Shown: piece by piece, positions 17,339 through 19,860 of the stretch
Layout: the number at the start of each line of letters is the position of its first letter
Position numbering within the stretch: the stretch's first letter is position 1
IMG/VR virus record: IMGVR_UViG_2778261687_000001
Coordinates: 1-19,860 of that record
Direction: 5' to 3' (one strand)
DNA from: a virus
Taxonomy: Duplodnaviria > Heunggongvirae > Uroviricota > Caudoviricetes
Length of the DNA stretch: 19,860 nt
The notes under the pieces: generated by a model
Told to the model about the DNA's origin: nothing
Database searches by the model: none
Seen by the model: the letters and a program-made list of their open reading frames with translations, nothing else
Translations under genes and position numbers: made by a program

Positions 17339-17521
17339 ATGGAGAAGTATAAACGAATTCTGTTTAGGTTGACTATGAAAAACGGCCTTGAATTGAAAGC
17401 GCCTGTAACTGATGACATCAGCAGAGCGGTGGCTTTTGCCATTAAGTGGGTGGCTGTCGGTATCGCTGTGTCTCCGATTCTGTATGGGATGGCAAAATTG
17501 ATCATTGCTGTGAAATCGTAA
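17339..17521 (+). CDS. Small protein with C-terminal TM helix, 60 aa
   Basis: GGGAG upstream; hydrophobic C-terminal segment AFAIKWVAVGIAVSPILYGMAKLIIAV. Confidence 0.4.
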   Translation: MEKYKRILFRLTMKNGLELKAPVTDDISRAVAFAIKWVAVGIAVSPILYGMAKLIIAVKS

Positions 17522-17538
17522 GTGGGGCAGGGGTAAAT

Positions 17539-17673
17539 ATGTCAGATAGCATTATAAAACTGGCGCGAATTCTCTGTGTGGCTGTTGGCCTTTCATTTTC
17601 AGCAATGTTGGTTGCCATTTTCATTTCCACCGCCTGGCGAGTATTGAGCTTATCCGGATTGATTGGTGGATAG
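17539..17673 (+). CDS. Small TM peptide, 44 aa
   Basis: ATG at 17539, 17 nt after the previous stop; single hydrophobic helix. Confidence 0.3.
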   Translation: MSDSIIKLARILCVAVGLSFSAMLVAIFISTAWRVLSLSGLIGG

Positions 17674-17677
17674 TGAG

Positions 17678-17860
17678 ATGAAGCGAAAACACTGGACACA
17701 CAGAATGCCGCGAACGGCGGCGAAATGGGCACTGGTAGCGATACTGGTGCCTTTTTTCCTGGTGGGATGCGTCAGCCTGGATAAGGCGCGCCAGCTTTTC
17801 GATACGGCTTCTCAGGTCTGCGAAATTGTCGACGGTGTTCGACAGTGTCTGCAGAGCTGA
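17678..17860 (+). CDS. Small predicted lipoprotein, 60 aa (lipobox LVGC)
   Basis: Basic N-region, hydrophobic core WALVAILVPFFLV, lipobox LVG-C; short Cys-containing mature part. Confidence 0.45.
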   Translation: MKRKHWTHRMPRTAAKWALVAILVPFFLVGCVSLDKARQLFDTASQVCEIVDGVRQCLQS

Positions 17861-18033
17861 TCGCCCGTAAGAGCAGAATATTTCGCTGAAAAATGAAGGA
17901 TGCGCCAGCGTCCAGAAAGCATGAAATTCTGCTGTGTGTGCCAATTTGTCTTATACATTCTGAATCTTGCCGCATCAGGATGAACTTTGAACAACAGCCC
18001 GGGCGGCAAGGGGCATTTTTATCCGGAGGGGAT

Positions 18034-18258
18034 ATGAAGAGATTACTGGTAACCGTAAAGCCCTTTAACGGAACGATTCCATTCAGGGTTTTGCAGCGTG
18101 GACGTGTTCTGGTTAAGGATATCTTCAGTGGTAAATGCACGGAATGTTATTCCCGGACATATGAAGTGGATGCCACGGATGAAGAAATTTCTGTTGAATG
18201 TGATCTTAACGCGAATATGGCGGAGATTGTAACAGCCACGTTGTTACCTGTTTCATGA
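18034..18258 (+). CDS. Hypothetical small protein, 74 aa
   Basis: Internal ATG with GGAGGGG upstream inside track ORF 17893..18258. Confidence 0.4.
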   Translation: MKRLLVTVKPFNGTIPFRVLQRGRVLVKDIFSGKCTECYSRTYEVDATDEEISVECDLNANMAEIVTATLLPVS

Positions 18259-18298
18259 ATGACATAGAATGTCTCCGGGTACCCAAAAGGAGAAAACT

Positions 18299-18514
18299 AT
18301 GTTTGTAGAAAATAACCTGAAGGCCGATCCTGATAATCAGGGATGGGTTCTGGGTTGGGCTGTAGTACGTGACAAACCCTGGCATCTGGTCGGTATTTAT
18401 GCAACGGAGGATGGCGCAAAGTCTAAACGCTCTGAATTGAATGGGGAGTATGAAGTTCGTTATGGTTCCCATCGTTTAGGTAGTGATGATTTTATGTCTG
18501 TCGGACTTAGCTAA
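18299..18514 (+). CDS. Hypothetical small protein, 71 aa
   Basis: AAAAGGAG Shine-Dalgarno; followed by a strong terminator. Confidence 0.5.
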   Translation: MFVENNLKADPDNQGWVLGWAVVRDKPWHLVGIYATEDGAKSKRSELNGEYEVRYGSHRLGSDDFMSVGLS

Positions 18515-18526
18515 CTGGCTGTGATG

Positions 18527-18555
18527 CCTGTTTGTAGCCCCGCAAATGCGGGGCT
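18527..18555 (+). terminator. Intrinsic terminator
   Basis: AGCCCCGC-aaat-GCGGGGCT then TTTTTTAT. Confidence 0.65.
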
Positions 18556-18570
18556 TTTTTATATCTGGAG

Positions 18571-18969
18571 ATGATGATGGAAAAAACAGAAAACAAACCT
18601 GTTGCAATTGGTGCTGATGCTGCTCCGTTTAAGTTTGAGTTGTCTCAACTGGTGGAGATGCGCATCAGTGATGAATGGGGTGAGGTTAAAGCCCGCGCGC
18701 AGTATGCGGATGGCGAAAACCAGTACTTGATCCACTACAAGGCTGCAGATGGTCGCGCCACGACGCAGTGGTTTGGTGAGTCAATGCTGGAAGCAACAGA
18801 AGATGATCGCCATCCGGGCTGTCCGGTATTTGCCGGTATGAAATTACCGGAAGGGGCAGTTGAACTGCAGCCGGGTGAGGTGTTCGTAATGTCAGAAGTC
18901 ATTGATGGTAAACCGCAGTATTCGCGTATTGAAATGAATAGTAAGAGTGCTCGCCTGATTCGTGAGTAA
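18571..18969 (+). CDS. Hypothetical protein, 132 aa
   Basis: GGAG upstream of a triple ATG; soluble acidic protein; a 13-bp stem-loop follows the stop. Confidence 0.6.
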   Translation: MMMEKTENKPVAIGADAAPFKFELSQLVEMRISDEWGEVKARAQYADGENQYLIHYKAADGRATTQWFGESMLEATEDDRHPGCPVFAGMKLPEGAVELQPGEVFVMSEVIDGKPQYSRIEMNSKSARLIRE

Positions 18970-19016
18970 CAGGCATTACAGCAGCCCTTCACTCTAAGGG
19001 GCTGCTGTAATGTGAG

Positions 19017-19054
19017 AAATAAAAAACCGGTCCAGCTACACAGAACCGGCCGGC
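19017..19054 (-). terminator. Minus-strand intrinsic terminator
   Basis: Minus strand reads CCGGTTCTGTGTAGCTGGACCGG then TTTTTTATTTC. Confidence 0.45.
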
Positions 19055-19140
19055 GAAGACCGCCAATACCACCCATGCATTGATGCAACATACTAATGAC
19101 AATAGCCGCTATTGATGTAAATGCAATGTTATGCATCGAC

Positions 19141-19184
19141 GAAAATAAAAAACCGGCAGGGGAAATCCATTGAAGACTTGCCGG
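19141..19184 (-). terminator. Minus-strand intrinsic terminator (second copy of the AAATAAAAAACCGG-flanked hairpin)
   Basis: Minus strand reads CCGGCAAG...CTGCCGG then TTTTTTATTTTC. Confidence 0.45.
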
Positions 19185-19329
19185 TGGCAAAAGTTGCCAA
19201 TGCTTTTATAACCGTAGTCACAGAGTTACGAAGTGCAACACCGAATGCTGCTGGTATATGGATGAATGGCGTTTCAATGATTTTCATCAATTTATTCATC
19301 AGCAATGGTGATAATCACTCTCATTTGTG

Positions 19330-19545
19330 CGGGTCCTTCCGGTGGGGGGGCCTGCCACGGGGCGGCAGCGTCGCGGAAAACGGCTAGTTTTTGCATTTTC
19401 ATGGTGGCGGCAGCATGTGATGTAATTTATTGATAATTAAAAGCTATTTCCATTTTCACCTGTACAATATTTTTTTCTCCCTGTCATTAGACCAGTTTGC
19501 AATTCATTGAAATATATAAATAAACCTGATTTTCACCTGCCAGAT
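19330..19545. other. Lambda-like cos region: cosN-like core (about 19356-19376) and two ATTTTCACCTG direct repeats (19452-19462, 19529-19539) as candidate terS-binding sites
   Basis: GGGTCCTTCCGGTG ... ACGGGGCGGCAGCGTCGCGG resembles the lambda right end and cohesive-end region (ACGGGTCCTTTCCGGTG ... GGGCGGCGACCTCGCGGG) as I recall it; it lies about 200 bp upstream of the terS start, as cosN does relative to Nu1. Confidence 0.5.
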
Positions 19546-19555
19546 GGAGTTGCTT

Positions 19556-19860
19556 ATGTCAAATGTGAGCGGGATCGGTGATGCTTATTACTGGAGTGTT
19601 TTTAAAATCGCCGAGGCCTTTGGGCTTCACCGGGACACAGTAAAAAAACGGCTCCTCGCGGCCAACACTCCTGTGGCTGCGACTGTCAGGGGGAACCCCG
19701 TTTACGCCCTGCAGCATGTCGGGCCTGCCCTGTTTAGTGTGAAGCATGAGGCAGCAGACTCTGTTCATGATCCATCCCGTATGGGTAAGCGGCTCACCAG
19801 AACCGTATTGATATTTACTGAGAGCTCAGATCAACTTTCCAGGGCAACAGATCGCGTACC
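19556..19860 (+). CDS. Terminase small subunit (Nu1-like), N-terminal 101 aa; gene runs past the window end
   Basis: GGAG 7 nt upstream; open to the window edge; N-terminal HTH-like segment (YYWSVFKIAEAFGLHRDTVKKRL) and GNPVYAL motif parallel lambda Nu1; sits just downstream of the cos-like sequence. Confidence 0.5.
   Translation, partial: MSNVSGIGDAYYWSVFKIAEAFGLHRDTVKKRLLAANTPVAATVRGNPVYALQHVGPALFSVKHEAADSVHDPSRMGKRLTRTVLIFTESSDQLSRATDRV

Follow-up and report, generated by a model that had tools for sequence, protein, structure and literature searches.

The right end of this chromosome raises the question of what a leftward-pointing unit with terminator-like hairpins is doing beside the cohesive-end site. 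Specifically, the interval at 18972-19290 might encode a small protein, specify a small RNA, halt transcription or act as a DNA element. The window, meaning the whole stretch of 19,860 nucleotides that was analyzed, comes from the late region of a lambdoid phage or prophage of E. coli. Two rightward ORFs of unknown function precede the interval on the plus strand, at 18269-18514 (phrog_4280) and 18571-18969 (phrog_1935), and the gene for the small terminase subunit (DUF1441/phrog_141) starts past it, at 19556. The sequence GGGTCCT at 19331-19337 on the plus strand aligns with the lambda right end and with DLP12 and is cosQ-like, the name and role being those of the lambda site. The cosN cohesive end GGGCGGCAGCGT is found at 19360-19371 on the same strand, the virion chromosome ending at 19359 and starting at 19360. 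This junction is located by two phage records, as that of cdtI stops at 19359 and that of Tritos opens at 19360. An IHF consensus site (19423-19435) is present to the right of cosN, where cosB is expected. The initial annotation had placed the interval near the genome end. The window does not stop at that end, as both cosQ and the 19359/19360 junction are inside the window, which continues past cos. Based on the placement of cosQ and cosN, the interval takes up the final ~390 bp of the chromosome on its right side, with the leftward unit at a distance of ~70 nt from cosQ/cosN.

Some features farther to the left are of interest in their own right. ORF 18269-18514 looks like a self-contained moron, with a promoter-like site at 18241-18270 and a terminator of its own. 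A weak GcvB-like covariance-model match on the plus strand at 18427-18562 (25.4 bits against a gathering score of 42, E 0.0035) covers the 3' end of this ORF, a GU-rich stretch GUGAUGAUUUUAUGU and the strong plus-strand terminator at 18536-18562. Additionally, a tRNA gene (51.6 bits) is present on the plus strand at 14856-14927, inside the phage late or regulatory region.

The interval itself begins with a 17-bp perfect hairpin (18974-19012), an inverted repeat positioned directly 3' of the stop codon of ORF 18571-18969. This hairpin was absent from the initial annotation. It folds at -29.2 kcal/mol with a z of -6.1 on the plus strand and at -25.7 kcal/mol on the minus strand, and a U-tract is absent on both strands. 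Relatives keep the hairpin behind at least four different upstream sequences, and compensatory double changes are found in the L025 and L074 types.

Two further hairpins, T1 and T2, are formed on the minus strand, and each consists of a GC-rich stem-loop with an adjoining 3' U-tract, as in intrinsic terminators. T1 (19017-19050; stem 19026-19050, tail 19017-19026) was found by both folding and a simple terminator scan, has a folding energy of -12.6 kcal/mol and ends in the tail UUUUUUAUUU (U6AU3). T2 (19142-19185; stem 19152-19185) was found by folding and is a bulged hairpin of -13.2 kcal/mol, its 12-bp stem being made up of 7 + 5 bp with a 5-nt bulge and its tail being UUUUUUAUUUU (U6AU4), with the U-tract at 19142-19152. 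The scan missed T2 because its loop is longer than the 8-nt limit of the scan. Terminator-like sites are abundant in this part of the window, with 9 in 17500-19860 compared to 2.0 ± 1.3 expected.

The minus-strand stems and U-tracts agree with the earlier description of terminator-like hairpins that point leftward, opposing the late operon. The same description had the two terminators sharing a flank. The shared flank proved to be an exact 14-nt direct repeat, AAATAAAAAACCGG, each copy of which, when read on the minus strand, forms the hairpin 3' arm and the U-tract; the second copy is at 19143-19156, but the first is at 19017-19030 and not at 19021-19035, a displacement of a few bases. The further suggestion of a simple terminator duplication did not hold up, as the two units align weakly outside the 14-mer (score 66, compared to 50 ± 6 for shuffled sequences, with a maximum of 73). 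T1 was likewise rejected as a diverged copy of the T2 unit, given that this score is just 2.6 sd over the shuffles and under the best of them.

T1 is carried on an optional segment of 126 bp (19031-19156), which is bounded by the AAATAAAAAACCGG copies at 19017-19030 and 19143-19156. The segment is missing from phages cdtI and phi458 and from 65 of the 143 sampled loci, and in loci of this kind the large hairpin is joined straight to T2. Among complete E. coli genomes, 126 of 5426 possess it. Most relatives have either a T1 loop longer by 8 nt or a mutation in one arm, and their hairpin is weaker (-14 to -16 kcal/mol); relative to most of them, the T1 loop in the window carries an 8-nt deletion. 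A mobile element was considered and rejected, since all 73 IMG/VR copies of the segment adjoin T2 where the contig reaches (one contig ends inside the repeat) and terminal inverted repeats were not seen at the segment ends. The simplest reading is that the T1 segment may have been gained or lost via recombination or slippage between the identical terminator tails.

Variation at the locus was assessed in ~140 loci gathered from IMG/VR with three independent exact patterns, namely a T2 24-mer, an anchor on the cosQ side and a T1 22-mer. The diversity sampled is limited, because exact-match patterns were used to find most loci, nearly all of them in E. coli prophages. T2 diversity was calculated from the loci recovered with the anchor on the cosQ side, in which T2 was free to vary (123 loci, 42 distinct haplotypes). 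At 19143-19190, which corresponds to T2, 6 of 48 positions are polymorphic and the mean diversity is 0.016, compared to 36 of 77 positions and 0.127 in the adjoining stretch at 19191-19267 (Fisher p = 8e-5 for the polymorphic sites). The stretch from the conserved block described below to cosQ (19282-19325) is polymorphic at 30 of 44 positions, with a mean diversity of 0.24, and the cosQ-cosN spacer with the cohesive end (19337-19372) at 29 of 36, with a mean diversity of 0.22. The rare substitutions within T2 are either located in the apical loop (CAA to UAC, U to G and a 1-nt deletion) or change a G-U pair to A-U, so that pairing is kept. On the 5' side of the unit, a conserved block, AUCAUUGAAACGCCAUUCA on the minus strand (19263-19281), is present beside the hypervariable 19282-19325. 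This block is invariant in all eight BLAST-derived sequences and is present in 63 of the 71 distinct T2-anchored sequences.

Overall, the locus is a mosaic of an invariant T2, three "middle" alleles, the conserved block, three to four "upstream" alleles of equal length, cosQ and several cosN/cosB/terminase types. The block comprising the large hairpin, T1 where present, T2 and cosQ was found in 25 combinations of upstream and downstream sequence clusters, the former numbering at least 12 and the latter (cosB/terminase) at least 9. Phages phiSTEC1575-Stx2k, phi458 and cdtI also carry the interval. Of 5426 complete E. coli genomes, 289 have matches to 18960-19420, most frequently to its T2-to-cos part, and 115 of the 289 cover at least 80% of it. 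A scan of GTDB genomes with the T2 24-mer gave a sole match, within a 733-aa helicase-like ORF of a Dadabacteria MAG (L127 1681-1704, residues ...YRQGKSIEEIA...), an unrelated MAG, and it was judged to be due to chance. A metagenome scan in which the loop was left free recovered just the known T2 loop variants and unrelated terminators. Neither scan turned up anything beyond the present sequence context. T2 is the conserved core and T1 is optional.

One explanation for a conserved leftward unit would be a gene. The initial annotation proposed a possible 52-aa minus-strand ORF, and the frame (19129-19287) is present as described, beginning MKIIETPF... at the ATG at 19287 and ending at the stop codon at 19129-19131. 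Its product would be a real small protein of 52 aa, or an allele-specific one of 52-111 aa, expressed leftward in lysogens. This is consistent with the first ~25 codons being free of indels, with the in-frame ATG located 6 or 9 nt before the conserved block in four of four otherwise divergent upstream alleles and with the calling of the ORF by PGAP in one of the four related genomes inspected (strain RM13752, WP_157777103.1). However, among the relatives, indels of 2 nt (near 19205-19210) and 1 nt (near 19190) put the C-terminal half of the ORF in three frames (...IKALATFATGKSSMDFPCRFFIFVDA; ...KNMALFCHRQIFNGFPLPVFYF...; ...ESMAIFLPPANLQWISPAGFLF...), and in one haplotype a stop codon is in frame within the ORF. 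The DNA beneath the shifting frames is T2, which is almost invariant. A search for the peptide in related prophages had been suggested as a check, and what it returns is a frame that is not conserved. In the indel-free 5' part, 21 haplotypes show 39 variable sites, which are distributed evenly over the first, second and third codon positions (12/14/13), and the pN/pS of 0.61 is no different from the values of 0.58-0.80 in the wrong frames and on the other strand.

The signals expected around a translated gene also argue against this protein. A weak Shine-Dalgarno had been reported for the ORF, but when 19288-19305 was read directly, no purine-rich sequence was present upstream of 19287. Moreover, the stop codon sits at least 13 nt past the end of the T2 U-tract, and an RNA terminated at T2 would therefore be a non-stop message. 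The ORF has no match among the Pfam and PHROG families. A search of 5.8 billion protein clusters yielded nine matching clusters of inconsistent lengths (53-90 aa), and the six with a source name are all from E. coli. Taken together, the frame that is not kept, the flat distribution over codon positions, the missing Shine-Dalgarno, the stop codon beyond the U-tract and the lack of a Pfam or PHROG family speak against the lysogenic-conversion peptide that had been envisaged. A real small protein is thus very improbable, and the ORF was judged spurious. The earlier caution that it may be non-coding is strengthened by the comparative data, from which the ORF is almost certainly non-coding, probably a chance reading frame over an RNA or DNA element.

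An 88-aa ORF on the plus strand (19121-19387) was also rejected as a gene, as it spans cosQ and cosN and its relatives are frameshifted. Matches to phrog_17397 and phrog_35601 are confined to its C-terminal part, over translated cos DNA only, and these two families themselves seem to derive from such translations rather than from a real protein. Similar plus-strand ORFs are annotated in phiSTEC1575-Stx2k.

The reading toward which we lean, with a little less than even confidence, is that the interval forms, at the right end of the lambdoid chromosome, a non-coding module that would terminate leftward transcription or insulate against it. A strong hairpin marks the end of the rightward late-region ORF 18571-18969 and would be faced by the leftward T2 and, optionally, by T1. 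In this arrangement, T2 would stop leftward transcripts that start in or cross the ~200 bp between T2 and cos, and because T2 is proposed to halt them, such transcripts would be kept from extending antisense through the late accessory and lysis genes. T1, carried on the 126-bp segment that is gained and lost, would provide a second, weaker stop. We infer both that leftward transcription exists at the interval and that the T1 and T2 hairpins terminate it in fact. This reading is favored by the terminator anatomy of both hairpins, the conservation of T2, the recurrence of the block in many sequence contexts, the evidence against coding, and the convergence of T1 and T2 with the plus-strand hairpin and its compensatory changes. 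It is also favored by a search of the minus strand for sigma-70-like promoters in 19100-19700, which, down to 8/12 matches, found none except three weak sites in cosB. The need for an insulator is nevertheless an assumption. Several forms of conservation also count against a plain terminator. The T2 loop and bulge are almost invariant, although terminators need no invariant loop; a second conserved block, 19263-19281, is present ~110 nt upstream of T2; and the in-frame ATG is kept in all four divergent upstream alleles.

The invariant T2 loop and the conserved 5' block would both be accounted for by a leftward sRNA gene of ~135-145 nt, its 5' end falling in or close to the block at 19263-19281, which would be the seed, with 19191-19262 as the body and T2 as an Hfq-type terminator. 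Such an RNA could work in trans, or in cis on the late transcript crossing cos, like the prophage anti-sRNAs whose genes converge with late transcripts. We consider this gene possible but doubtful. Both ends of the unit are conserved and its middle is variable, and the hypervariable stretch gives way abruptly to the conserved block at ~19282. Of the features by which Hfq-dependent sRNAs are recognized, a long U-tail after the terminator hairpin is present, the U6AU4 tail following a small hairpin and an A/U-rich stretch, and the conserved 19-nt block is a candidate seed. There is also a precedent in the short sRNAs of lambdoid prophages that are convergent with late transcripts, which have conserved 3' regions of ~42 nt and variable 5' ends (PMC4104026). 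In contrast, none of the four upstream alleles has an acceptable sigma-70 promoter: no site matches at 9/12 or better, a TT(A/G)TCA motif is accompanied by poor -10 candidates, and a consistent -10 element common to the four was not found. Consensus folding of 16 haplotypes with RNAalifold gave no covariation outside T2, and compensatory changes were seen in 0 of 24 pairs. A 13-nt inverted repeat between the two most conserved parts of the unit, the T2 apex (19162-19174) and the 5' block (19273-19285), is 85% complementary and has a 7-bp perfect core; a 7-bp match has, by our own estimate, a chance expectation of ~0.03. Long-range pairing of the block with the T2 apex was rejected, however, as this complementarity is uncompensated in the L146/L147 loop variants, which also counts against the sRNA. 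Rfam searches at gathering thresholds on the whole window and at E ≤ 10 on 18400-19860 left the minus strand empty, 18972-19290 included; Rfam 15 is expected to include the AsxR and AgvB families. Finally, a literature search with the T2 and block sequences returned no matching paper. That T2 and the block at 19263-19281 constitute an undescribed leftward non-coding RNA within ~220 nt of the right cohesive end is put forward as an improbable proposal. The fixed geometry of the locus could instead reflect a DNA element that is not a transcription signal, such as an accessory site for cos recognition or packaging termination, or a recombination boundary of lambdoid modules. Consistent with this, the T2-cosQ spacing is fixed at 150-152 nt and the linkage is constant in all loci, small allelic segments form a mosaic between the invariant blocks T2, 19263-19281 and cosQ, and the 126-bp indel is exactly between identical 14-mers. 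An element of this type is nonetheless unlikely. Lambda, DLP12 and Qin share cosQ-cosN and are without T2, indicating that T2 is dispensable for cos function generally. Furthermore, T2 is found beside several unrelated cosB/terminase types, an IHF consensus site was not found in the unit, and a U-run directly after a hairpin is what typifies terminators.

Comparison with known systems provides further context for the proposed leftward terminator or insulator module at this position. The initial annotation drew an analogy with lambda bor, which is also a leftward gene inside the lambdoid late region. The analogy is positionally wrong, as bor is at 46459-46752 in lambda, ~1.7 kb from the right end. 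In addition, bor encodes a 97-aa lipoprotein, while the 52-aa ORF matches no Pfam or PHROG family and is unconserved as a protein. Instead, the positional analogue in lambda is a leftward ylcI-like ORF beside cos. The minus strand of lambda at 48109-48303 (L150 2710-2904) contains a 64-aa ORF with DUF3950 that is identical to K-12 YlcI; it is the last before the right cohesive end and is unannotated in NC_001416. DLP12 ylcI and Qin ynfO have the same place and orientation, abutting cos. Because lambda, DLP12 and Qin share this arrangement, a leftward unit beside cos is a recurrent lambdoid feature. Like the ylcI/ynfO-type ORFs, the unit here is leftward, is the last feature before cosQ and points away from cos. 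However, the DUF3950 ORFs are conserved proteins, while the unit here possesses neither a DUF3950 match nor a coding signal, and outside cosQ-cosN its DNA resembles none of DLP12, Qin and lambda. The leftward cos-adjacent unit of this phage is sequence-unrelated to the ylcI type and non-coding.

The unit also shares properties with intrinsic terminators at convergent gene ends and with morons, an architecture characteristic of lambdoid late regions (Juhala et al., 2000, cited in PMC4104026). It combines a GC-rich hairpin and a U-run with an opposing neighbor gene that has its own hairpin, and it occupies the accessory-gene zone that separates the lysis genes from cos. It differs in that it has no attached gene or promoter and in that the loop and bulge are conserved beyond the needs of a terminator. 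Among prophage RNAs, AsxR and AgvB (EcOnc01-03) of the EHEC lambdoid prophages are similar in being leftward and convergent with the late transcript and in having a conserved 3' terminator portion of ~40-48 nt with variable upstream sequence (PMC4104026). These RNAs are encoded just downstream of PR' or stx, are 51-60 nt long, have mapped start sites and bind Hfq (PMC4104026). In contrast, the unit here is cos-adjacent, has a predicted length of ~140 nt and is without a detectable promoter or Rfam match. More generally, the prophage sRNAs in PMC4104026 and in the 2026 Pas-sRNA preprint are near Q/holin genes or among structural genes, not beside cos. A different stretch is found upstream of cosQ in phage PhiR5_1 (L151), where ~180 bp at 1627-1806 are GC-rich and unannotated and have no Rfam match. 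This stretch recurs at 75-94% identity in ~400 phage records, among them phage 434 and many Stx phages. A diverged T2-like sequence that directly precedes this stretch and abuts the Rz stop codon of PhiR5_1 was considered and rejected because it does not fold as a terminator.

In conclusion, the cos junction is now fixed inside the window, and a false small-protein candidate is removed from consideration. WP_157777103.1 is then an artefact of conserved non-coding DNA, as are the plus-strand ORFs called across cos in some phage records. What is left is a 48-nt terminator-like element that is near-invariant while its surroundings shuffle among E. coli prophages. Should T2 give rise to no discrete RNA, it would be an ordinary terminator or insulator. 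Should such an RNA be made, a cos-proximal member would join the repertoire of prophage sRNAs, and the invariant T2 loop would be the interaction surface of that RNA. In lambda, packaging finishes with the right cohesive end and injection begins with it. For this reason, a leftward RNA encoded there, if it exists, could be the earliest phage transcript, or else a riboregulator expressed in the lysogen.
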